Origin: a virus
Taxonomy: Duplodnaviria > Heunggongvirae > Uroviricota > Caudoviricetes
Length of the DNA: 9,444 nt
Virus record (IMG/VR): IMGVR_UViG_2648501797_000003
Location: 1-9,444 of that record
Direction: 5' to 3' (one strand)
Part shown: positions 1 to 9,444 of the stretch, in pieces
Numbering within the stretch: the stretch's first letter is position 1
Layout of the letters: every line of letters begins with the position of its first letter
The notes under the pieces: model-generated
Databases searched by the model: none
What the model was told of the DNA's origin: nothing
The model's input: the letters and a program-made list of their open reading frames with translations, nothing else
Made by a program: the position numbers and the translations under genes

Positions 1-783
1 CTAAATCATCGCAATGCCGTAATGCTGCCTGATGCGAAATGGTCGCCGGAAACTTAAAACAGAAGCGGAAGTCATCTGTGGTCTGCTCACGCCAGCGCAG
101 GACAACCTCGGGTTCTCAACCGCGCCGATAACCTGTTTCTCTTCTGCGCTTAACGCCACCCAGAATTCCTGATACTTAACAGTTCCAAGGCGTGCGGCAG
201 ACTCGCCTTTTGCGATCAGTTCCGGGCGGCGATCATCCGATTCATGCCCTACATGAACCTCTGTCGCACTCCCTTCAATGACACGTTCGGCTTCGTCCTG
301 ATCGAAGATGCCAGCAAACCCAAATGCGAGACGCGCACACTGGATCAGCGTCTTGTGACGAAGCATACGGGTAGGGTGGGACTGCCATGGCTGAGTGTTG
401 CGTTTGCACTCTCCCATGTACTCAGTAACGATGGTCGGGTGTGTGCGGTCTTTCCGGTATATCTTGCAGGTACACGCGCCTTCTTCCTTGTCGTAGGCAA
501 ACTCCATTCCATCAAACTGAGGATGTTCGTTGATGATTCGAGCCCAGCCGTCAACGCCGACTACAGGAACAATTCCACCTTTATCCGGGAATGCATAAAT
601 CTCTTTTGTCCACGGGTTCAGTCCGTACTGGTTGGCGACGATCAGCAGTGCCGTGAACTGCTCATCAGTGACATTCCCACCCTTAAATGCTGTATTTTTC
701 AGAGTGTTCATCAGGTCAGTTCCGGCATCCATGCCGAGGCGGGAGGCAAGCTTCCCGGCCATTGTAGAAAGTGCTGTGCTCAT
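1..783 (-). CDS. bet: Bet / Red-beta family single-strand annealing recombinase (260 aa)
   Basis: Translation from ATG at 783-781 (MSTALSTMAGKLASRLGMD...LLIVANQYGLNPWTKEIYAFPDK...VPVVGVDGW..RIINE..QFDGM...CTC.IYRKDR.HP...TE.M.EC.....PWQSHP.RMLRHK..IQCARLAFGFAGI.D.DEAER) is near-collinear with lambda Bet as I recall it. SD GAGGGG lies 6 nt upstream of this ATG. Stop TAG is at 3-1. The ORF-track start at 834 adds 17 residues with no homology and overlaps the upstream gene. Confidence 0.9.
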   Translation of the reverse strand: MSTALSTMAGKLASRLGMDAGTDLMNTLKNTAFKGGNVTDEQFTALLIVANQYGLNPWTKEIYAFPDKGGIVPVVGVDGWARIINEHPQFDGMEFAYDKEEGACTCKIYRKDRTHPTIVTEYMGECKRNTQPWQSHPTRMLRHKTLIQCARLAFGFAGIFDQDEAERVIEGSATEVHVGHESDDRRPELIAKGESAARLGTVKYQEFWVALSAEEKQVIGAVENPRLSCAGVSRPQMTSASVLSFRRPFRIRQHYGIAMI

Positions 784-799
784 AGAATTCCCCTCAAAG

Positions 800-1084
800 T
801 TAAAACGGGCAGCCGGTGCGGTGGTCCCAGTCATATTCCGCCTGGGCGTAAGCTACTGCCGAGATGAGATCGTTATATGCCTCGCCAGCTGCATCGCTGC
901 GGAGGCCTTCGTATGGGCTTTTGTCCATCGGCACAGAGAAGCGGAACAGGCCTGACGGCTCTTTCGGCAGGGCGTCGATAATTTCCTGCGCCCGATCGTC
1001 AATCCACTTTTGCTTCTCTTCGGTTAGCGACTGTTCAGCCCATTTCCTTTCTTCGATAGCGTCGTATGCGCGGTAGGCGTTCAT
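800..1084 (-). CDS. gam: Gam-like host-nuclease (RecBCD) inhibitor, 94 aa from ATG 1084 (GTG at 1090 also possible)
   Basis: N-terminus MNAYRAYDAIEERKWAEQ resembles lambda GamS MNAYYIQDRLEAQSWARHY; similar length (~95 aa), charged helical character, and position immediately upstream of bet as in lambda. Start sits 7 nt after the stop of the upstream gene with an SD-like GAGGUG spanning that stop. Homology is from memory. Confidence 0.6.
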   Translation of the reverse strand: MNAYRAYDAIEERKWAEQSLTEEKQKWIDDRAQEIIDALPKEPSGLFRFSVPMDKSPYEGLRSDAAGEAYNDLISAVAYAQAEYDWDHRTGCPF

Positions 1085-1091
1085 AAGCACC

Positions 1092-2063
1092 TCAGTAACT
1101 GATACCGGTATGGGGAATGCGGCCGTCTTTAACCGCTGTAAGCACCTCGATAGCCTGATCCCGAGTAAGGCTGGTATTGGCCAGAAGAGCTTTGACGATT
1201 TCAGTGCCTACAGCCTTGCGGTGCTTAACGTCGGCTTCGCGGCGAGCCTGCTCATCGGCTTTACGTTTCTCCTCAGCCAGGCGGGCCTGTTCGCGTTGCT
1301 CTGCCTCGCGGCGGATGCGATCGGCTTCTTCCTGAGCTTTGCGGCGCTCCGCTTCGATAGCGGCCTGCTTGTCAGCCTCAGCTTTCTTCTCGGCTGCAAT
1401 GCGATCTCGCTCTGCCTGCTCAGCTTGTGCTTTCAACACAGCTTCGCGATGCGCCGCTTCTTCACGTTCACGCGGTGCGCGCTGCTCAACTTCTCGGGCT
1501 GCTGCGGCGGCTGCCATTCGCTTAATTTCTTCTTCATGGGCAATGCGCTGGCGCTCAGCCTCAGCTGCTTTATCTGCCTGCTCTCGGTCGAAAGCGTCAT
1601 TCATCAGCATGGCCATTTCGTGGTCAGACTCAATCCGAGCTGCCAGCTGCCGATCGAACTCTTCATTCATGGCCAGTGCTTCGACGTGAAGGGCGTTCAT
1701 GGCTTCTTCGGCCTTAATGCGTTCCTGCTCCGCCTCCCATTCGGTCAACGGGCGACGCACTTCATCTTTCAGTGCATCGAGACGCTCACGGACAACGCGG
1801 CGGCTTTCATCAATCTGCTTTGGCAGCGCCTTCAGCTCAGCGACCAGGGCTTTACCTGCGTTGTCGATGTAGGTTTTAGAGCGCGCGACCTTGTGAGCCA
1901 TGGATGCGATAGCATCGCGGCCTTTTTTGGTGGTCACGTCCGGCACCAGACTGCGAGCCTCTTTTTCGATCGCTTCGATAAGCGGATCGAGTTGGTCGTT
2001 ATTGGTGAAAACCGCCATCGCGTTCTTTTTCTCGATGACGACTAAATCCATTATTTCGCTCAT
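1092..2063 (-). CDS. Hypothetical coiled-coil protein, 323 aa; structured N-terminal ~110 aa, then long Ala/Glu/Arg/Lys-rich low-complexity helical region
   Basis: Long ORF from ATG 2063-2061 with SD AGGGGA about 5 nt upstream; stop TGA at 1094-1092 directly abuts the gam-like start. Central region is repetitive (AEAERQRIA..., AAAAAARE..., KAQAEQAERDRIAAEKKAEADKQAAIEAERRKAQEEADRIRREAEQ). The antisense frames are open only because of this GC-rich repetitive coding. Family not recognised. Confidence 0.75.
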   Translation of the reverse strand: MSEIMDLVVIEKKNAMAVFTNNDQLDPLIEAIEKEARSLVPDVTTKKGRDAIASMAHKVARSKTYIDNAGKALVAELKALPKQIDESRRVVRERLDALKDEVRRPLTEWEAEQERIKAEEAMNALHVEALAMNEEFDRQLAARIESDHEMAMLMNDAFDREQADKAAEAERQRIAHEEEIKRMAAAAAAREVEQRAPREREEAAHREAVLKAQAEQAERDRIAAEKKAEADKQAAIEAERRKAQEEADRIRREAEQREQARLAEEKRKADEQARREADVKHRKAVGTEIVKALLANTSLTRDQAIEVLTAVKDGRIPHTGISY

Positions 2064-2312
2064 GGTTTCCCCTGAAATTTGGTTGTAAGAATCCCGGCAC
2101 CGTATTGGCTGCCTGATAGCTCAGTTAAATTCGTGCGCTGATATCCGGGTTTATATTGCCTGGGAGTCATTAATCAATCTGGCGTGGAGTGCGATTCGTG
2201 GCTAAATCCCCCGCCGAACGCAAAGCCGCGCAGGAGGTAAAGATCTGTTTGGCTGGAAGTGAGGGCGTGGTAATGTGTTTACCTATTCTTCATTTGCTTA
2301 GGTGGCGTGAAA
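2064..2312. promoter_or_regulatory. Divergent intergenic control region between the leftward recombination operon and the rightward small-ORF operon
   Basis: 249 bp non-coding between divergent gene starts (2063 minus, 2313 plus). Candidate leftward sigma70 promoter: -35 TTGATT (revcomp of 2172-2177), 16-nt spacer, -10 TATAAA (revcomp of 2150-2155). Short repeated motifs TTGSCTG (2105, 2156, 2249) and GGCGTG (2181, 2265, 2303). Promoter calls are by eye only. Confidence 0.35.
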
Positions 2313-2510
2313 ATGCTGTATACAGTGACGTTCAATGAGACAGAGCGGAAGGAAGATATTGAACTTAGCGCGGATGTCAGGGCGGGTGATTTGCTGTCAT
2401 TAACGCTCGATGGCGTGAAAGATGACTACACGGTGATGACAGTAGGCGGTCCTATCATTGGCAATACCTGTGTCCCATCAATAATCCGGGTAAAAAAAGC
2501 TCAGAAATAA
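2313..2510 (+). CDS. Hypothetical small acidic protein (65 aa from ATG 2313; ORF track starts at GTG 2307)
   Basis: ORF with SD AGGTGG (2300-2305) 7 nt upstream of ATG 2313; first gene of the rightward operon. No helix-turn-helix evident, so not obviously Cro-like. Confidence 0.5.
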   Translation: MLYTVTFNETERKEDIELSADVRAGDLLSLTLDGVKDDYTVMTVGGPIIGNTCVPSIIRVKKAQK

Positions 2511-2519
2511 TAATGTATA

Positions 2520-2546
2520 ATCCCCTCCACAGCAGAGGGGATTTTT
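2520..2546 (+). terminator. GC-rich hairpin with short U-tract (terminator-like) that sequesters the SD of the next gene
   Basis: 8-bp perfect stem ATCCCCTC / GAGGGGAT (2520-2527 with 2535-2542), 7-nt loop CACAGCA, then TTTT immediately followed by ATG 2547. The 3' arm contains the GAGGGG Shine-Dalgarno of the 2547 ORF. Confidence 0.45.
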
Positions 2547-2729
2547 ATGACAAACAAAAAAATGACACCTGCCGAAAAGCTCAAAGCTTCGCGGAAGCGG
2601 TATAAAAAAATCTGGCTTCAACTGGATATCGCTAACGCCAAGCGATTTGGCGAGAAAGAAGTGCTTTCCGTTGACACCTACAGATCGCCCTATGAAACGC
2701 GCAAGAAAAGAGGAAGGACAGCAGATTGA
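2547..2729 (+). CDS. Hypothetical small basic protein (60 aa), possibly nucleic-acid binding
   Basis: [42 protein letters not shown]...; Lys/Arg-rich; a beta-strand-then-helix pattern ([14 protein letters not shown]) is compatible with a ribbon-helix-helix fold, but this is a guess. Confidence 0.5.
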
Positions 2730-2989
2730 CAACATCATCCTGGAACATAGCAGCCAAATCGAAAGACGAGCAGGACAAAGTCAACGTTGACCTCGCCGCG
2801 TCCGGCGTCGCTTACAAAGAACGCCTGAACATGCCGGTTGTCGCCGAAGTGGTGGCCAGACAACAGCCTGAACACCTGCGGGACTACTTCATGGAGCGCG
2901 TCCGCTACTACCGCGAGCAGAGCATCCAGCTTCCCCGCGCATCCGATCCGCGCTATCTGGAAATGGCTGAGCAGAACGCCAAGAAATAG
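2726..2989 (+). CDS. Hypothetical protein (87 aa) with putative TTG start overlapping the upstream stop (TTGA)
   Basis: ORF in track; strong SD AGGAAGG (2711-2717) 8 nt upstream of TTG 2726; the first in-frame ATG (2831) has no SD. Confidence 0.45.
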
Positions 2990-3095
2990 CGATTTCCTCG
3001 CCTATGCTCATTTTGCTTTTATCCCCGGGAGGGGCGATAATTACTTAGTCAGTCTGGACAACTGACAACTTTACCCCGGCGCCAAGTGGGGACAC

Positions 3096-3563
3096 ATGGC
3101 GCAAACACTGCAATTTGAGAAAAGTTATCAAAACGTACTGATTCCCGCAGAGCCGGGAACCAGCGAATACCTGCAACTTATCCCCGTAGGGCAACTGCTT
3201 TGCGGTGAGTTCCGCAAGCCCAGGAATTACGCATTCCACAAGAAGTTCTTCAAACTTCTGACTCTCGGGTATCACTACTGGACGCCTTCCGGTGGTCTCA
3301 TTGAGCCCGCGGAGCGTACCCTCATATCCGGTTTTATCGACTTTCTCTCATCCGACCTCGATCAGCGCGCTGCACTCCAGAACGCCGCGGAGATGTATCT
3401 CTCCTCGGTCGGTATATCCCGTTCCCGCGATATGGCGCTGCTGAAACACTTCGAATCCTTCCGCGAGTGGGCAACCATTCAGGCTGGCTTTTATGACGAA
3501 TACCAGATGCCTGACGGCAGCCGTCGTCGTGTCGCAAAGTCGATCTCCTTTCTGGCTCGATGA
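3096..3563 (+). CDS. Hypothetical protein (155 aa), nin-region-like position
   Basis: ORF with ATG 3096 preceded by GTGGGGA. Sequence feels like a conserved enterobacterial prophage protein of unknown function (possibly a DUF-type family), but I cannot name it reliably. Confidence 0.6.
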   Translation: MAQTLQFEKSYQNVLIPAEPGTSEYLQLIPVGQLLCGEFRKPRNYAFHKKFFKLLTLGYHYWTPSGGLIEPAERTLISGFIDFLSSDLDQRAALQNAAEMYLSSVGISRSRDMALLKHFESFREWATIQAGFYDEYQMPDGSRRRVAKSISFLAR

Positions 3564-3650
3564 CCAGCAGGTTGACTACTACAGCGTGAAGAGAATGCCT
3601 GTCGTCAAAGGTGGGCGGCTTGAGCTAACCATTACCGAAATGGAGTCCGC

Positions 3651-3791
3651 ATGAGCCGTGACGTTATCGAACGCATCCGCGACCGCTGGCAAAAGCTTCG
3701 CCTCCTGCGTAGCCGCGGCACCGTGCTGGTCGACTACAAAATATTACGCAATTTCGTCCGTATCTATAAGCGCCTGGGAGAAGCAGCATGA
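3651..3791 (+). CDS. Hypothetical small Arg-rich protein (46 aa), below the ORF-track length cutoff
   Basis: ATG 3651 with SD GGAG (3642-3645) 5 nt upstream; translation MSRDVIERIRDRWQKLRLLRSRGTVLVDYKILRNFVRIYKRLGEAA; its stop TGA (3789-3791) overlaps ATG 3788 of the next gene (ATGA coupling). Confidence 0.35.
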   Translation: MSRDVIERIRDRWQKLRLLRSRGTVLVDYKILRNFVRIYKRLGEAA

Positions 3792-4477
3792 CAGCTCAAT
3801 ACTTGGAATTTGTTCGCCAGCAGCTGATAGTGGCCACCGCCGATCTGAGTGGTGCGACGAAAGGGCAACTGGTAGCTCTTGCAGAGAACGCGCAATTTAC
3901 CGCTACGGCGCGCAGCCGTGGCCGGAAGAAGGTGTATAGCGAGGTGAAGCAAAAAATGGTTAACCCGGATGGACCGCCGATGAGCGGCAGCCAGTCCCGC
4001 GCTAAGGGTTCCTCAATCGCTCTCGTTCTGCCCGTTGAATACTCGACAGCCAGCTGGCGTCGCGCCCTCCTGTCGCTGGAAGACCACCAGAAATCCTGGT
4101 TGCTGTGGAACTACAGCGACAATATCCGCTGGGAGCACCAGGAGACGATAACCCGCTGGGCATGGGAGCAATTCAGCGACAAGCTGGCCGGTGTGCGCAT
4201 TGCAAAGAAAACAGTCGATCGCCTCCGTCAACTTATCTGGCTGGCCGCACAGGACGTCAAAGCCGAGCTGGCAGGACGGGAGACGTATGAATACCAGTCG
4301 CTGGCGGAGCTGGTTGGTGTAGCAAAGTCCACATGGACAGAAACCTACCTCCCTCATTGGCTGGCGCTGCGCAGCAGTTTTGTGAAGCTTGATAGCGACG
4401 CTCTCATGGCGGTAACGCGATCACGTTCACAACAAAAGGCGTCAAATTTAGATGTAAGTCTTGCAAAACCGAACTGA
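3788..4477 (+). CDS. Hypothetical protein (229 aa); candidate late-gene regulator (Q-like by position only)
   Basis: ORF with SD GGGAG 7 nt upstream. It is the last early gene, immediately upstream of a promoter-terminator-tRNA arrangement like lambdoid Q-pR'-tR'. It has no cysteines, so it is not a lambda-Q-type zinc-finger protein. The functional call is inference. Confidence 0.55.
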   Translation: MTAQYLEFVRQQLIVATADLSGATKGQLVALAENAQFTATARSRGRKKVYSEVKQKMVNPDGPPMSGSQSRAKGSSIALVLPVEYSTASWRRALLSLEDHQKSWLLWNYSDNIRWEHQETITRWAWEQFSDKLAGVRIAKKTVDRLRQLIWLAAQDVKAELAGRETYEYQSLAELVGVAKSTWTETYLPHWLALRSSFVKLDSDALMAVTRSRSQQKASNLDVSLAKPN

Positions 4478-4489
4478 AAGGCATATATT
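4461..4489 (+). promoter_or_regulatory. Candidate sigma70 promoter (pR'-like late promoter)
   Basis: -35 TTGCAA (4461-4466), 17-nt spacer, -10 TATATT (4484-4489), overlapping the stop codon of the 229-aa gene; predicted start near 4496, about 50 nt upstream of the terminator hairpin. Confidence 0.35.
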
Positions 4490-4544
4490 TCATGTAAATC
4501 TGATATCGTCGCCATAGCTTCGATTGTCGACACATAAAGAATTC

Positions 4545-4578
4545 AAGCCCGAGGTTAACGCCTTGGGCTTTTTCATTT
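4545..4578 (+). terminator. Intrinsic terminator (tR'-like)
   Basis: 10-bp stem AAGCCCGAGG / CCTTGGGCTT (one G-U pair), 6-nt loop TTAACG, followed by TTTCATTT. Confidence 0.6.
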
Positions 4579-4580
4579 CA

Positions 4581-4655
4581 GGGTCAGAAGCACAGCGGTT
4601 GTGCGTTCGGCTGTTAACCGAATGGTAGAAGGTTCGAATCCTTCCTGTCCCGCCA
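4581..4655 (+). tRNA. tRNA-Asn (anticodon GUU)-like gene, 75 nt including encoded CCA
   Basis: Hand-folded cloverleaf: acceptor 4581-4587 with 4645-4651 (6 bp plus one T-T mismatch), D-stem GCAC/GTGC, anticodon stem TTCGG/CCGAA with loop CTGTTAA (anticodon GTT at 4613-4615), 5-nt variable loop, T-stem GAAGG/CCTTC with canonical T-loop TTCGAAT, discriminator G, CCA. Non-canonical A at position 8. Confidence 0.6.
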
Positions 4656-4661
4656 AATAAT

Positions 4662-4732
4662 GGCCTGACCTGATGACGGGCTCATAATCCAATCCATCAG
4701 GGGCGCTGCTGCAACAGCGTCACAGGCCGCCA
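4662..4732 (+). other. Degenerate tRNA-like remnant (possible decayed tRNA with CAU-type anticodon loop motif)
   Basis: GGCCTGA (4662-4668) pairs with ACAGGCC (4722-4728) and is followed by G-CCA. Inside are a 7-bp hairpin (4669-4675 with 4695-4701) whose loop contains CTCATAA, and a 5-bp hairpin CGCTG/CAGCG (4704-4719). No D-arm and no canonical T-loop. Confidence 0.25.
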
Positions 4733-4789
4733 GACCAAGCCTGGGTATTTTCGGTCATCACCGACATTGCTATTACCCTCATGCTTATT

Positions 4790-4818
4790 GCCTGCCTAAC
4801 CGCAGGCTTTTTTATTTT
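4790..4818 (+). terminator. Intrinsic terminator
   Basis: 6-bp stem GCCTGC / GCAGGC, 6-nt loop, followed by TTTTTTATTTT. Confidence 0.6.
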
Positions 4819-4920
4819 CAGGGTCGCGGGAATCACCCTCGACGCTTTGTTGGTAAATCAGCCCGACGGCCCTGACCTTCTCACACACAGCTTCCCGATC
4901 TTTCATCGGAGGCGGTAACT

Positions 4921-5340
4921 ATGGCTAAGCGTATGCAAGACAAAGAGAGCATTGCCGGGATGTCCTGGCTGGTTCTGCTGATCATTGCTGGTTGGGGCGG
5001 CCTTGTCCGATTCCTGATGGATGTAAAGCAGGGCAAAGCAAAATGGAGCTGGATAAATGCTTTTGCGCAGATTGTGGTTTCGGCTTTTACCGGGGTTATT
5101 GGTGGGCTCATCAGCATTGAAGGTGGCCTGAGTATTTACATGATACTGGCCACTGCCGGTGACCAGGTTAACAGCGAGCTATGGTGGGCGATTCAGAACG
5201 GTTATATGACGGTTAAAGCCGCAGGGGTTCGTGTCCGTGAAATAGAGACCGTCAGTGATGGTTATCAGTTTTTTGGCTTCGATATCGAAAATGACTATAT
5301 CGCTGGCTTCGACCGCGGGTCATGGGGAGAGAGATTTTAA
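4921..5340 (+). CDS. Holin-like small membrane protein (139 aa) with dual-start motif
   Basis: SD GGAGG (4908-4912) 8 nt upstream of ATG 4921. N-terminus M-A-K-R-M (Met1 and Met5 separated by Lys-Arg); hydrophobic helices around residues 11-33 and 43-79; charged C-terminal region. First gene after the late promoter/tRNA region, where lambdoid holins sit. Confidence 0.6.
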   Translation: MAKRMQDKESIAGMSWLVLLIIAGWGGLVRFLMDVKQGKAKWSWINAFAQIVVSAFTGVIGGLISIEGGLSIYMILATAGDQVNSELWWAIQNGYMTVKAAGVRVREIETVSDGYQFFGFDIENDYIAGFDRGSWGERF

Positions 5341-6221
5341 TGGCGACTAACGATTTTAAACCCTTCGCTACTGGTAGCGGGGCAAACGTATTATCACAAG
5401 CTGATTATGACGCACTGTCGGCCAGAACAACTGGCTTTTTAAGTGGCAAAGCGTCTTCGGCCCAGGTCAACAAAGCTTTAAGGCAGGCATCAACTATTGC
5501 GGCGGTTGTGGCGCAGTTTATTTCTGATAACAGCGGCGATGACACCCTTGATAACGGTAATTTACCTACCTTACTGGCTAGTCTCGAAAGCGCCCTCCTC
5601 AAGTCCTCCCCTGGGCGGTTACAGAATATCGTTAGCTTTACCGCAAATGGGACCTACACCCCATCGCCAGGAACCAAACATGTAAAAGTTATTGTTACTG
5701 GCGGTGGTGGCGGTGGTGGTGGTTGTCAGGGAACTTCAGGATCTGAATCAGTTTCAGGTGGCGGCGGCGGTGCTGGTGGTACGGCCATTGGTTATTTTGC
5801 TGTAACTGAATCCAGCTATGCAGTCACTGTAGGTGCTGGTGGTTCTGCTGGCGTTGGTGCTGTCCAGGGTGGAACAGGCGGAACCTCAATCATTAACGGC
5901 ATTAGCGGATTGGGCGGAGATGGTGGTCAGAAATCAGGGATCACTACGCTGGCTGGTGGGAAAGGCGGTATTTCTATTGGTGGCTCGGTTAACCTTCCCG
6001 GAGGTTACGGCACTGATGGGCAAAATGGCTCCCTGATTATCCCCGGCAATGGCGGCTCGTCATATTGGGGCGGCGGTGGTCGTGGGGGCGCACGCGGGGG
6101 CGTGGCAGGGGATTGTTATGGTGCCGGTGGTGGTGGCGCATATGATGCTGCCATGTCTGGCAACTCCTACAATGGCGGACAGGGGAAAGCAGGGATTGTA
6201 TATATTGAGGAATATTCTTAA
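5340..6221 (+). CDS. Glycine-rich protein (293 aa from ATG 5340), tail-fibre/adhesin-like
   Basis: ATG 5340 overlaps the upstream stop (TAATG) with GGGGAGAGAG upstream; the ORF-track start at 5322 lies inside the upstream gene. N-terminal ~110 aa ordinary composition (MATNDFKPFATGSGANVLSQADYDAL...), then polyglycine tracts (G8, G5, GGxGG) separated by short variable segments. Family not identified. Confidence 0.7.
   Translation: MATNDFKPFATGSGANVLSQADYDALSARTTGFLSGKASSAQVNKALRQASTIAAVVAQFISDNSGDDTLDNGNLPTLLASLESALLKSSPGRLQNIVSFTANGTYTPSPGTKHVKVIVTGGGGGGGGCQGTSGSESVSGGGGGAGGTAIGYFAVTESSYAVTVGAGGSAGVGAVQGGTGGTSIINGISGLGGDGGQKSGITTLAGGKGGISIGGSVNLPGGYGTDGQNGSLIIPGNGGSSYWGGGGRGGARGGVAGDCYGAGGGGAYDAAMSGNSYNGGQGKAGIVYIEEYS
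5700..5723 (+). repeat. In-frame trinucleotide simple-sequence repeat (GGY)8 encoding Gly8
   Basis: GGC GGT GGT GGC GGT GGT GGT GGT read directly from the sequence, within the Gly-rich CDS. Confidence 0.8.
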
Positions 6222-6391
6222 TGGTAAGCAAGTATGCAGTCCTGAAAGAATGCGTGGTAGAAAACATTATTGTTGCTGATGATAATTACTCTCCTGATGA
6301 TTTCGAAGTCGTAAAATATAGCGACGAAACATTTTGCCAGCCAGGCATGTTGTACAATAAAGAGGATGGTTTATTTTATGATGATAAATAA
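6221..6391 (+). CDS. Hypothetical small protein (56 aa), translationally coupled to the Gly-rich gene
   Basis: ATG 6221 overlaps stop TAA 6219-6221 (TAATG); translation MVSKYAVLKECVVENIIVADDNYSPDDFEVVKYSDETFCQPGMLYNKEDGLFYDDK. Below the ORF-track cutoff. Could be a short chaperone or a fragment of a tail-fibre assembly protein; unproven. Confidence 0.35.
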   Translation: MVSKYAVLKECVVENIIVADDNYSPDDFEVVKYSDETFCQPGMLYNKEDGLFYDDK

Positions 6392-6438
6392 TCATCAAGA
6401 ATAAATAACATTATCTACATATCTACACATTACCAATC

Positions 6439-6463
6439 AACCGGCTTATGCCGGTTTTTTATT
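6439..6463 (+). terminator. Strong intrinsic terminator directly abutting the start of the 694-aa gene
   Basis: 7-bp stem AACCGGC / GCCGGTT, 4-nt loop TTAT, followed by TTTTTTATT; ATG of the next gene at 6473. Confidence 0.7.
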
Positions 6464-6472
6464 GGGGCGACC

Positions 6473-8557
6473 ATGAGTGAATACGATACCGGCAATCCTG
6501 TGCCGTCTGCATCAATACCTGATGCATGGGATAATATGCAGTCTATTGACAGGTTCGCTAATAGTAGTGATGAAACTATTACCACGCGTACAGGTAAGCA
6601 GTTAGACACTCTGCATGGCATCAATGTAAAGTCTGATAACCAACTTAATGAACAACAAGATACCTTTGAATTATCTCAATCCGAAAGGGAATCCTCTTTC
6701 GAAGAAAAATCAAATGAATTTGAATCGCGCTTCTCCTCTCAGTTATCGGCGCAGGAATCAACATTTTCAGAATCTCAATCTGATAAAGAAAACCGCTTTC
6801 AGCAGTTCCTGAATACTTCAGGATACGTGTTCCTTGGCGATTATCAGGACGGCCCATTCCAGTTTAGTGCCCGTAACCAGTACATCCGTTACGGCAATGA
6901 GTATTACCGCCTGAATGCTGCTACTGACGTCGGCTTTACGACCACCGGAACCGATGCGACCAGCTTTGCGAACGACGTTACTCACTTCGTTCTGATGGAT
7001 GGTGATACGCTTCGCCAAGACCTGGGTTCAGGCGAAGGAGCAATGAAGGTTTACCGGAACGCCTCACCTCTGGCCAGAATCATTCGCTCCTCGATTTTTG
7101 AATACCTTACTGAAGCTGATCAGCAGGCGTTGCTCACAATTCCTGGCGTTAATGTTATCGCTGACTACGCGTTAAAAAAAGCTATAGCTGATGGAGTGAT
7201 GGTACTGGATATTCCGTGGAATGTCGGTGCGTTAAATTTCGGGCTTGACCCCGCAATGCTTCCATTAGGTTTTCAATTTATAGGGTGGGGTTGCCGACGC
7301 CCATATACAATTGATGACGATAACAGTTTTCTGAATTGCGGAGTCGTCATCCGCGTAGCTGCTGGTGCAAGTTTTCCATTTTATTCAACAGGCAGGCATG
7401 TATTCCGGGATATTGTTTTTGATGGCCGAGATAAAACAACGTACCTTTTTTATTCGCCAAATACTGCAACCCAGTTCAACGGCACCCGACTTGAGGGGTG
7501 TGGATTTTATCGGTTTGCGATCGGGATTGGCTGGGCTTCAGGAGGAACAGCCAGGTACATCGGAACAATGAAAGCATATTTCTGCTCAATATCCGGAAAC
7601 GGGGATGGAGTCAGGAATTTAATAGACTCCATGATGTTTGGTTGCACAATCAATGCTAATGATCGAGGAGTGGCCCTTACCGGTGGGGCAAACAATAACT
7701 TTTTTGGAGGATGCCGGAACGAATGGAACACCGGCGATAACTGGTATGCGTACCAGTCGGTGGAGAACCAGATTTTCGGCGAACTGTGCGACAGGGCCGG
7801 AAGGGGAGGTGTGGTCGCCGGGGCGAAATCCTCATGGATTTTAAACGGCGTTAACGTCCGGCGCAGTGGTGCTAATCAACCCGTGGGTAATGACTATTCC
7901 GCAAACTTTATTATTATTGATGACGGTAAAATTGAACTCTCAGGGGTAAGAACTGGTGTCGGTGCGAATGACAGCGGTGACGGAGGGACAATCTCGCCAT
8001 CCTACAACGTATCAGCTCTTGGCTCTGGCGGGGGGACCTTGCAGGTTTCCGGAAGTGACATGACTGGTTTTGTTACTTCAGCAATTAACCAGAAGGCGAC
8101 CACGTTAAATAAGTCGATAACCGGCAACCTTGGTATGGACGACGATGTAAATATTGGTATGACCCAGGTTGTTAAAGGCAGGCGAATTATTGGTTCACAG
8201 TCATCAGGTACGTTAGCAGGCTCTGCGGGCGCAACGTTATCGCTGACCAAGACCAACATATTCCAGAATTATTTCGATACATATATTACCCGTTCAATCC
8301 TAATTGAATGTCGAATTGGTAGCCAGTCATTTGGTGACGATATTAAAATTCCCGTCAGATTCAGAAGGGAGAATCTTTATTATCTGGATATCCTGACCTC
8401 GGGAATTGTTGCCAGCTCTGCACGCATTGGGCTTTCAGGGACTGGCGTAACGGTATCATTGTCCATTAACAGCTCAACCGGTCTGGTTACTGTTCAGTTG
8501 ACAAATGTTGATGGTCTGGAAAGAACCGTTAATGTATCAATGTTGCCCTCAATGTAG
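6473..8557 (+). CDS. Tail-fibre / tailspike-like protein (694 aa); probable receptor-binding protein with beta-helix-like body
   Basis: Long ORF. N-terminal acidic Ser/Glu/Phe repeats with roughly 11-residue spacing of Phe (TFELSQSERESSFEEKSNEFESRFSSQLSAQESTFSESQSDKENRF), typical of fibre coiled-coils; central and C-terminal Gly/Asn/Ser/Thr-rich stretches resembling beta-helix tailspike proteins. No specific family confirmed. Confidence 0.7.
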   Translation: MSEYDTGNPVPSASIPDAWDNMQSIDRFANSSDETITTRTGKQLDTLHGINVKSDNQLNEQQDTFELSQSERESSFEEKSNEFESRFSSQLSAQESTFSESQSDKENRFQQFLNTSGYVFLGDYQDGPFQFSARNQYIRYGNEYYRLNAATDVGFTTTGTDATSFANDVTHFVLMDGDTLRQDLGSGEGAMKVYRNASPLARIIRSSIFEYLTEADQQALLTIPGVNVIADYALKKAIADGVMVLDIPWNVGALNFGLDPAMLPLGFQFIGWGCRRPYTIDDDNSFLNCGVVIRVAAGASFPFYSTGRHVFRDIVFDGRDKTTYLFYSPNTATQFNGTRLEGCGFYRFAIGIGWASGGTARYIGTMKAYFCSISGNGDGVRNLIDSMMFGCTINANDRGVALTGGANNNFFGGCRNEWNTGDNWYAYQSVENQIFGELCDRAGRGGVVAGAKSSWILNGVNVRRSGANQPVGNDYSANFIIIDDGKIELSGVRTGVGANDSGDGGTISPSYNVSALGSGGGTLQVSGSDMTGFVTSAINQKATTLNKSITGNLGMDDDVNIGMTQVVKGRRIIGSQSSGTLAGSAGATLSLTKTNIFQNYFDTYITRSILIECRIGSQSFGDDIKIPVRFRRENLYYLDILTSGIVASSARIGLSGTGVTVSLSINSSTGLVTVQLTNVDGLERTVNVSMLPSM

Positions 8558-8565
8558 GAGTGAAA

Positions 8566-8745
8566 ATGGAAGACGAAACAGAACTGACCGAACCGCCATT
8601 TGAAACCTGGTTCAGAGACGTGGTTGAACTGGTTAAAAATGGCGGACATTCAATGGATATTGTTGCCTATAAGGGGGAATGGGTTGATTATTTTTCGGAA
8701 GGATTAACACCAGAAGATGCGTTTATAAAAAGAATGGCTCTTTAA
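8566..8745 (+). CDS. Hypothetical small acidic protein (59 aa from ATG 8566)
   Basis: SD AGGAG (8556-8560) overlaps the stop of the 694-aa gene, 5 nt upstream of ATG 8566; very acidic (MEDETELTEPPFETWFRDVVELV...). Confidence 0.5.
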   Translation: MEDETELTEPPFETWFRDVVELVKNGGHSMDIVAYKGEWVDYFSEGLTPEDAFIKRMAL

Positions 8746-8858
8746 ATAACCGACCGAAAATAAATGTCAGGGAGTAACGTATTGATAATTTTCGACAAAA
8801 CGGCAGAGCATAGTGAAAACCGCCTGTGGATGATGGCCAACATGGGGAGGATTCTGTA

Positions 8859-9176
8859 ATGGGCTTTCCATCACCCGCGACGGATTACACGGAACAGCGA
8901 TTAACGGTTAACTCGATCTGCAATGTCGGTCCAAATACGCGCCTCTTCGAGCAATCTGGCGGTTACGTTGTGCTGGATGTCTCCCTGAAACCAAAGCAGG
9001 CCAGTCAGGTTCTGATCCAGCACGGCGGCGGGACGGAGCTTGCCACGCTGAGAGGAAGGTCGCTGATTACCGAAGATGGTGAAGCGATCGAGGGCGAGGC
9101 CCTGGACGATGTTACTGTCATCGGTGTAGTGACGTTTACTATCTGCGATGTGCGCCAGGACAATGCGGTTGTTTAG
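8859..9176 (+). CDS. UmuD'-like protein lacking the N-terminal pro-peptide (HumD-like; 105 aa)
   Basis: SD GGAGG (8846-8850) 8 nt upstream of ATG 8859. N-terminus MGFPSPATDYTEQRLTVNSIC matches the UmuD segment GFPSPAADYVEQRIDLNQLL that begins at the Cys24-Gly25 self-cleavage site (13 of 20 identical by my recall). C-terminal TVIGVVTFTI resembles UmuD DVFGVVIHVV. No GDSM serine motif seen and no umuC-like ORF downstream. Confidence 0.65.
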   Translation: MGFPSPATDYTEQRLTVNSICNVGPNTRLFEQSGGYVVLDVSLKPKQASQVLIQHGGGTELATLRGRSLITEDGEAIEGEALDDVTVIGVVTFTICDVRQDNAVV

Positions 9177-9339
9177 TTGCAGTCAATTGATGGAAGATTT
9201 CGCGTGGCAGGCGTCTTGGGGCATGGGTGGGGCATGAGAAATCAGTGAATTTCGCCAAACATTGCAAACAACGTATGTTGGATGCTATCTCCAGCCATTA
9301 AAAATGGCGCTCCTGGACGATATTTGTCGATTTTTAAAT

Positions 9340-9444
9340 TTACCGCGTCACGCAGTTAAAGTGGCGGGCATACTCTTCAAGGCTGGTGATCCCCAACCGC
9401 ACCCATTTAGGATGCGACCATTGCGGTAGACCGATGTAAATCAT
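9340..9444 (-). pseudogene. 5' fragment (34 codons plus stop) of a DUF72 / YecE-like host gene, apparently interrupted
   Basis: Minus-strand translation from ATG at 9444-9442: MIYIGLPQWSHPKWVRLGITSLEEYARHFNCV then TR-stop. This matches my recollection of the E. coli YecE (DUF72) N-terminus, which should continue EGNTT...; divergence begins near 9348. Identification from memory. Confidence 0.45.

Follow-up and report, generated by a model that had tools for sequence, protein, structure and literature searches.

The run of eight glycine codons in the tail-fibre gene of this prophage most probably encodes one arm of a glycine-lattice loop whose length would be set by the protein fold, and the occasional in-frame slippage deletions in it would be mutational noise rather than tuning; we put the probability of this reading at roughly three in four. 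The window, i.e. the whole stretch of DNA that was analysed, has 9,444 nucleotides (IMG/VR record IMGVR_UViG_2648501797_000003, positions 1 to 9,444) and derives from a temperate phage or prophage belonging to the Klebsiella/E. coli group. The features needed for the argument are listed below, with the evidence for each in brackets; GRM stands for glycine-rich motif.

4921..5340, plus strand: fusion ORF whose holin N-terminus passes at about 5160 into the C-terminal end of a baseplate wedge (DUF2612/Phage_Wedge1) gene (Pfam, PHROG, megablast breakpoint at 5160)
5340..6221, plus strand: tail-fibre gene, 293 aa (ORF list and translation; RefSeq annotates the 882-nt version; PHROG tail-fibre families at E 5e-62 to 1e-20)
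5340..5615, plus strand: helical anchor domain at the N-terminus, about aa 1-92 (residues 1-98 matched by phrog_11303 and phrog_1396; AF2 helices 40-65 and 75-89)
5646..6209, plus strand: TNF-like and glycine-rich receptor-binding domain, Pfam PF21722 Gly_rich_2 (Pfam, profile match to the Pam3 fibre, Foldseek)
5700..5723, plus strand: GRM1, (GGY)8 = G121-G128, putative ascending arm of central loop L1 (aligns with the 'GGGGAGG' L1 motif of Pam3)
5724..5756, plus strand: putative distal tip of loop L1, CQGTSGSESVS (sequence and length variable in the family; pLDDT 86)
5757..5780, plus strand: GRM2, GGGGGAGG, putative descending arm of loop L1 (homologue alignment, Pam3 profile alignment)
6069..6080, plus strand: G4 run (WGGGGR), further glycine-rich motif (run listing)
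6126..6137, plus strand: G4 run (GGT GGT GGT GGC), C-terminal central loop (run listing; 3-bp deletion in some relatives)
6221..6391, plus strand: 56-aa ORF, its start overlapping the stop codon of the fibre gene (TAATG) (phrog_18617, E 5.6e-23)
6439..6466, plus strand: intrinsic-terminator-like hairpin and T-run after the pair formed by the fibre gene and the 56-aa ORF (sequence)

The tail fibre and its predicted fold

The glycine-rich gene encodes a 293-aa protein when read from the ATG at 5340, which is the start used by homologues and by RefSeq; an upstream in-frame ATG at 5322 would yield a 299-aa fibre. Small overlapping ORFs at 5833-6036 (plus strand), 6037-6267 (minus strand) and 6049-6279 (plus strand) were regarded as incidental products of the G-rich sequence.

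Several lines of evidence assign the protein to a known kind of fibre. The PF21722 match (36.9 bits against a cutoff of 24.3) aligned residues 109-296 of the 299-aa ORF with positions 3-224 of the 226-position profile, and a profile built from 55 homologues matched the fibre of phage Pam3 (7YFW_a and 7YPX_A) with an E value of 5e-13 between query residues 85 and 298. The AF2 model of the fibre with eight glycines (G8) had a mean pLDDT of 83.6, with most of the domain above 90; the N-terminal helices were predicted at 50-80 only, while the segments of interest reached 96 (G8 block), 86 (L1 tip) and 98 (GRM2). When this model was submitted to Foldseek, the Pam3 fibre 7YPX_A ranked first (E 7.7e-10, TM 0.56/0.64), and the other top matches included gp33 of mycobacteriophage Bxb1 and the glycine-rich domain of ALK. 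Taken together, the profile matches and the model indicate that the fibre belongs to the Pam3-gp24/PF21722 glycine-lattice tail fibres, a kind that is already known.

In the Pam3 gp24 structure, the N-terminal helical domain docks to the baseplate and the strands of a TNF-like sandwich extend into six long loops with two glycine-rich motifs each; hydrogen bonds of the main chain stack these loops about 5 A apart, the two central ones, L1 and L6, bear GGGGxGG, and the variable non-glycine distal tips have been proposed to be receptor-binding (PMC9608196). The profile alignment sets VKVIVT-GGGGGGGG-CQGTSGSESVS-GGGGGAGG of the window fibre against VRAV-GGGGAGG-NSNTGNSKAS-GGGGGAG of Pam3, which would make (GGY)8 the ascending arm, 5724-5756 the tip and 5757-5780 the descending arm of L1. 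Alignment and model both point to G8 and GGGGGAGG as opposite arms of central loop L1 in a packed glycine lattice, and the loop-by-loop correspondence with Pam3 gp24 should be read in the light of an identity of 27-28% in the Foldseek alignments. By family and fold the protein is probably a receptor-binding tail fibre, since Pam3 gp24 and Klebsiella TFP_Y suggest binding to a host receptor by analogy; the same two fibres would also lend it a trimeric state (PMC9608196, PMC12671077). By the same analogy with Pam3 gp24, the L1 tip is the presumed receptor-contacting segment and the N-terminal anchor presumably docks the fibre to the baseplate wedge (PMC9608196).

The initial annotation regarded the product as a receptor-binding or adhesin-like protein, and a receptor-binding tail fibre is what the PF21722, PHROG tail-fibre, Pam3 profile and Foldseek matches support. 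Its suggestion that the glycine runs are polyglycine spacers did not hold up, as the runs are better described as motifs of a packed lattice like that of Pam3 gp24 (PMC9608196). A flexible polyglycine linker or spacer was likewise rejected, given that the G8 block is modelled with a pLDDT of 96, lies inside the PF21722 domain and keeps its length in about 97% of 109 homologues.

We propose that the fibre would consist of an N-terminal helical anchor followed by a TNF-like beta-sandwich whose strands run into the glycine-rich domain, where long hairpin loops of paired glycine-rich motifs would pack side by side via main-chain hydrogen bonds. Glycine would be required in the packed loops because no side chain fits, and the non-glycine loop tips would form the receptor-binding surface (LPS in the Klebsiella relatives). 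If (GGY)8 and GGGGGAGG are the L1 arms of such a lattice, the fold would dictate the length of the run, and purifying selection would maintain it.

Host prophage and neighbouring genes

The gene is carried by a prophage that is internally deleted and, by its gene content, defective. The holin-wedge fusion ORF at 4921..5340 is a scar left by an internal prophage deletion of about 13 kb, and this arrangement was found in only 4 of 5426 complete genomes. A Phage_Wedge1/DUF2612 wedge gene lies directly upstream of the fibre gene in four related loci (L001, L004, L010 and L057) and is intact in L004, L010 and L057, whereas the window retains its 3' end only. Most E. coli carriers have a tail terminator followed by a pseudogene and then directly by the wedge and fibre genes, without sheath, tube or baseplate hub; the deletion of about 13 kb in the window comes on top of this. 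In such a defective prophage, selection on adsorption cannot act.

The 56-aa ORF is a constant downstream partner of the fibre gene, which it follows in L001-L004, L010 and L057, and it is a candidate assembly factor. Its assignment as a chaperone like gp25 of Pam3 was considered and dropped, as a PDB sequence search gave only a weak, unrelated match. Further downstream, at 6473-8557, there is a tailspike-like gene (694-aa ORF) that matches PDB 7XY1 at E 3.7e-46.

Tail fibres with other C-terminal domains, from many Enterobacterales prophages, share the N-terminal anchor segment. A contig scan seeded on the N-terminal motif found mostly fibres whose C-terminal domains were unrelated; only about 9 of its 46 loci were glycine-rich.

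Comparison with known glycine-rich proteins

The closest described counterparts are Pam3 gp24 (7YFW, 7YPX; PMC9608196, PMC9942802), Klebsiella TFP_Y (SCNJ1-Y) and MMNM_27, which, like the window fibre, combine a helical anchor, a TNF-like sandwich and a glycine-rich domain. Pam3 gp24 is also of similar size (280 aa, against 293 aa for the window fibre), and its gene adjoins a baseplate wedge gene, as do those of the relatives of the window fibre. The Klebsiella gp24 homologues, which bind LPS and trigger DNA ejection (PMC12671077), sit beside a separate depolymerase or tailspike, and the window fibre likewise stands beside the 694-aa ORF. The differences from Pam3, besides the 27-28% identity, are that the N-terminal anchor of the window fibre comes from a different, enterobacterial family, that its partner is a 56-aa ORF without detectable similarity to the 162-aa chaperone gp25, and that its gene lies in an internally deleted prophage, whereas Pam3 is an infective phage.

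The gp38 protein of T-even phages and S16 (a polyglycine-II sandwich, PDB 6F45) follows the same logic, with a packed core of glycine-rich motifs devoid of side chains displaying variable receptor-binding loops, and Pam3 gp24 superposes on it (PMC9608196). Plaque formation by T6 was abolished when any one GRM or HVS of its gp38 was deleted (PMC3157838). However, gp38 is a separate monomeric tip protein on gp37 and lacks a TNF-like module, whereas the window protein is the fibre itself; no gp38 entry appeared among the PDB profile matches (E <= 1) or among the 50 Foldseek matches listed out of 124 (E <= 10). The resemblance of the window fibre to gp38 is architectural only and not one of homology.

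The glycine-rich domain of ALK/LTK (7LRZ, 7N00, 7NX3) has the same TNF-like sandwich and long glycine hairpins in a polyglycine-II lattice. Its Foldseek matches to the window fibre had E values of 2e-3 to 1e-2 at 13-17% identity and a low TM (0.24), and the Pam3 fibre has been superposed on the C. elegans ALK homologue with an RMSD of 2.6 A over 125 CA (PMC9608196). ALK/LTK differs in being the ectodomain of a eukaryotic receptor tyrosine kinase that binds protein cytokines, and its likeness to the fibre is one of fold.

The glycine-codon repeat and its conservation

The run at 5700-5723 reads GGC GGT GGT GGC GGT GGT GGT GGT, is in frame with the ORF 5322/5340-6221 and encodes G121-G128 in the numbering of the 293-aa protein (start at 5340); its coordinates and frame were correctly given in the initial annotation, and the further GGN clusters, which it had placed at about 5761-5770 and 6070-6130, were roughly located (5757-5771, 6069-6080 and 6126-6137). 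These are the other runs of at least three glycine codons, of five, four and four codons, respectively, with GGN codons scattered between them. The first of them reads GGT GGC GGC GGC GGT and is followed by GCT GGT GGT (A-G-G). As a DNA repeat the (GGY)8 region is modest: its longest perfect trinucleotide tract is (GGT)4, 12 bp at 5712-5723, a 9-bp unit GGCGGTGGT is repeated 2.3 times (21 bp perfect, 5699-5719), and the TRF scores of the glycine-codon repeat (36-43) lie below the default threshold of 50.

Composition alone makes the (GGY)8 run only mildly unusual. Shuffling of the 37%-Gly domain gave a probability of 0.033 for a longest glycine run of at least eight, and the probability that all eight codons are GGY was 0.087, with 74% of the glycine codons of the tail-fibre gene being GGY. 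It is the conservation across homologues, rather than composition, that marks the run as non-random. For this comparison tblastn and blastn searches were useless, because the BLAST low-complexity filter masks the glycine-rich region; against the phage collection they matched the glycine-rich part only in Wanchaivirus PDP110P2.

Among 109 homologues with 40-67% identity, the columns of the G8 block were 80-100% glycine, gaps occurred in 3% of the sequences and in the first three columns only, and a run length of eight was retained in about 97%. Indels at the level of the family fall at loop tips (positions about 158-159, 171-177, 191, 204, 218, 230 and 252-260), outside the glycine runs. A relative with 88% nucleotide identity had 106 substitutions and zero gaps across the whole gene. 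The codons, in turn, are scrambled: closer relatives show four synonymous arrangements of eight codons each (third positions C-T-T-C-T-T-T-T, C-T-T-T-C-T-T-T, C-T-T-T-C-G-T-T and T-T-T-C-T-T-C-T), and homologues from Izhakiella encode eight glycines by a mixture of GGC, GGA and GGT codons, without a DNA repeat. The retention of eight glycines despite synonymous scrambling argues for selection at the protein level, the DNA repeat being a probable by-product of eight glycines written in the host-preferred codons GGT and GGC. These alignments indicate that the length of the glycine run is conserved rather than tuned, contrary to the length tuning that had been suggested for it, a suggestion that also sits poorly with the rarity of length variants.

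In-frame deletions in the glycine runs

Length variants do occur among close relatives (about 65 distinct sequences at 90% identity or more), and all in-frame deletions in this set lie within glycine runs. The first is a 9-bp deletion (5699-5707) that removes one 9-bp unit and turns G8 into G5. It was found in the E. coli chromosome CP169164 (L057), whose gene is otherwise identical to that of the window (873/873), and in two independent metagenome contigs (L001 and L002), which differ from the window at 20 positions; at least five contigs of chromosome length (>1 Mb) carry the allele. A distant fibre clade likewise includes G5 proteins (P0039/P0042 and P0077), and these are most closely related, at 93-95% identity, to proteins with G8. 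The second is a 54-bp deletion between the GGTGG at 5703-5707 and the GGTGG at 5757-5761, i.e. with a 5-bp microhomology, which takes out seven glycines and the whole L1 tip. Its carriers are an E. coli contig (L003), which shares the holin-fusion context and has zero substitutions in the gene relative to the window, and K. variicola, where it lies on another allelic background. In addition, one codon is lost from GRM2 (5757-5780) in P0146 and one (3 bp) from the run at 6126-6137 on two backgrounds (P0001/L004 and P0124), while P0122 has an extra Arg beside, and not inside, a glycine run. No length variants of the run at 6069-6080 were found among close relatives, and no expansions of glycine runs among the relatives compared, only contractions.

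Five of six independent in-frame indel events fell in runs of at least three glycines, which make up 7% of the codons (binomial P about 1e-5), and all the deletions begin and end within direct repeats. On the sequence comparison, the glycine-codon runs are a low-rate hotspot of in-frame deletion, and the boundaries suggest replication slippage as the mechanism. We suppose that the preferred-codon glycine run would create, as a by-product, short direct repeats (the 9-bp unit x2.3, the GGTGG copies 54 bp apart and (GGT)3-4), which would occasionally misalign in replication and yield recurrent in-frame deletions such as G8 to G5, excision of an L1 arm with the tip, and losses of single glycines. 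The length-variation hotspot proposed in the initial annotation thus survives in part, as in-frame deletions confined to glycine runs in near-identical relatives; these are rare, and no expansions were seen. Comparison of repeat lengths among homologues, which had been suggested as the way to check it, gave nearly always identical lengths together with a few in-frame variants.

Sharing of deletions between backgrounds might also be explained if single ancient deletions had been spread by homologous recombination between prophages, without the glycine runs being mutational hotspots. Tail-fibre genes are notoriously mosaic, and the backgrounds that share a deletion differ by few polymorphisms, which also segregate in full-length alleles (I/V 211, A/S 262). 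Nevertheless this is unlikely, given that the alleles with the 9-bp deletion in L057 and the 54-bp deletion in L003 are otherwise identical to that of the window, which requires at least two events in situ, that the deletions end in direct repeats as slippage predicts, and that recombination alone would hardly concentrate five of six indels in 7% of the codons.

The deletion alleles are rare in the genomes surveyed. At least 59 of 68 complete E. coli genomes with a full-length gene were identical to the window over 900 of 900 positions, the exact G5 allele was found in none of these 68 when both G5 alleles were used as queries, and all five metagenome matches to the flanking pattern had the 24-nt run. 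AF2 modelling of the G5 allele kept the overall fold (mean pLDDT 82.4), with a drop that was only local in L1, from 96 to 84 in block 121-130 and from 86 to 75 in block 131-140, which hints that G5 may be a tolerated but perturbing change. G5 is not obviously deleterious, since it persists in no fewer than five chromosome-length contigs, in two metagenomes and in a second clade of fibres, and the recurrence of deletions on several backgrounds could instead mean that they are tolerated or even favoured.

Such observations invite the idea of an adaptive length switch in the style of a contingency locus, in which selected slippage would vary the reach or shape of L1 and generate diversity in receptor specificity. 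The deletions are found only in glycine runs and recur on independent backgrounds, the G5 model retains the fold, and the loss from G8 to G5 removes exactly three residues, which may amount to one turn of a polyglycine-II helix, and could keep the packing register; moreover, the loop affected is the one with the presumed receptor-binding tip (PMC9608196). We nevertheless consider a switch of this kind improbable. The perfect repeats are short, only contractions are seen, which speaks against a reversible switch, and a length of eight prevails in the homologues even where the codons are scrambled. The variants are rare and occur mostly in a defective prophage, where selection on adsorption is not possible. 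Experimentally selected host-range mutants of the related Klebsiella gp24-like fibres, in contrast, were all SNPs at non-glycine residues (PMC11633184, PMC12671077).

The likeness to contingency loci of bacteria and phages lies in recurrent in-frame indels at short tandem repeats in a surface-recognition gene, and repeat-number polymorphism among near-identical genomes, by which such loci are recognised, was indeed found, at low frequency and as contractions only. The long uninterrupted tandem tract that is also expected of them was not found in the tail-fibre gene, where the best tracts are (GGT)4 and the 9-bp unit x2.3. The window tracts are interrupted and far shorter than classical ones, variants are rare among clonal genomes, and the ancestral length is strongly conserved. 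Classification as a contingency locus was rejected on tract length, rarity and the one-way nature of the changes seen.

Unlikely, too, is the idea that G5 and the excision of an L1 arm with the tip are functional alternative alleles, the repeat being a built-in means of pulling back or dropping the central receptor-binding loop without loss of register, and so of changing host range. That the variants are errors of sequencing or assembly in a G-rich stretch of low complexity is highly improbable, for although many draft assemblies break within the fibre gene and give partial proteins, and some database alleles have frameshifts at G-rich sites (P0009, P0011, P0169 and P0176), the 9-bp deletion was recovered in two independent metagenome assemblies and in five contigs of chromosome length, the 54-bp deletion in assemblies of both E. 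coli and K. variicola, the lengths lost, from 9 to 54 bp, are divisible by 3 and the losses are bounded by direct repeats, unlike homopolymer miscounts, and the repeats are far shorter than assembler k-mers.

We return, then, to a run length set by the glycine lattice. The deletions are rare, are contractions only and occur mostly in a defective prophage, and for these reasons the most sensible reading is mutational noise with a neutral or mildly damaging effect.

Implications

In phage receptor-binding proteins, glycine repeats at the codon level can reflect a glycine-lattice fold, as in Pam3 gp24, S16 gp38 and ALK-like domains, and not flexible, tunable spacers. The repeats would expose this fold to a small set of stereotyped in-frame deletions, which could confuse the typing of alleles. 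The same deletions mark glycine arms that tolerate shortening, which may be of use in engineering minimal fibres and, if the variants are functional, they would show how the central binding loop can be remodelled in nature by simple means.

An internal deletion upstream of the fibre gene

Upstream of the fibre gene (5340-6221, plus strand), an ORF combines the N-terminus of a LydA-type holin (residues 1-80) with the C-terminal end of a DUF2612/Phage_Wedge1 baseplate wedge gene. This fusion marks an internal deletion of about 13 kb that removed genes for lysis, packaging, head and neck and, as a consequence, placed Q and the late-promoter region directly upstream of the fibre gene. Only four of 5426 complete E. 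coli genomes carry the same holin-wedge fusion, among them CP144710, where it is 100% identical. The features in and around this region, in window coordinates, are:

3788-4477, Q antiterminator gene
4581-4655, tRNA-Asn (GTT), between the Q antiterminator gene and the holin
4921-5340, holin-wedge fusion ORF, junction at about 5160
6221-6391, 56-aa ORF (phrog_18617, function unknown), its start overlapping the fibre stop codon (TAATG)
6473-8557, tailspike/fibre-like protein of 694 aa
8826-9176, UmuD-like ORF (phrog_3469, E 7.5e-46)

Terminator-like hairpins lie on both sides of the tRNA gene (4545-4570 and 4790-4807). The UmuD-like ORF stands at the prophage end, and in E. coli relatives the chromosomal yecD side comes next.

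A longer version of the prophage adjoins yecD/aspS in E. coli chromosomes (positions 8129-9019 of locus L010 and 9107-9243 of locus L057), with the gene order tail-terminator gene, pseudogene fragment, wedge and fibre. Because genes for sheath, tube, tape measure and baseplate hub are missing even from this longer version, the entire E. coli lineage of the prophage appears to be defective.

Fibre alleles in public assemblies

In draft assemblies of E. coli and Klebsiella, dozens of database proteins labelled partial stop within the 3' third of the fibre gene, at window positions of about 6010-6120 (protein residues of about 224-261), and therefore reflect systematic breakage of short-read contigs at this site. 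Such breakage may arise because these genomes carry another, similar copy, or because coverage drops over the G-rich DNA. Public data also hold frameshifted alleles of the gene (P0169, P0176, P0178, P0009 and P0011), at least three of which (P0169, P0176 and P0178) are on contigs 4.7-5.3 Mb long. In P0169 the reading frame shifts after RGGARG, where a G5 homopolymer lies (window position about 6095-6100). These alleles may be either real pseudogenes or homopolymer errors of long-read sequencing.

Predicted receptor-binding proteins and possible exchange of modules

The 56-aa ORF, invariably found 3' of the fibre gene among relatives, has no detectable resemblance to gp25, the chaperone of Pam3, or to any other chaperone in the PDB; its position suggests a candidate small fibre assembly factor.

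The 694-aa protein has a relative of solved structure, 7XY1 ("phage type I tail fibre"), which matches residues 207-606 at E 3.7e-46, and the body of its gene in the window shares 77-91% DNA identity with tail-fibre/spike genes of Klebsiella phages. Together with the glycine-rich fibre it forms a set of two predicted receptor-binding proteins, similarly to Klebsiella phages SCNJ1-Y and MMNM.

The N-terminal anchor of the fibre (5340-5615, motif KASSAQVNKA) is common to tail-fibre genes of 46 species-representative Enterobacterales genomes. Since just about nine of these 46 anchor-bearing loci also encode a glycine-rich C-terminal domain, receptor-binding domains would appear to be swapped as modules on a common anchor.
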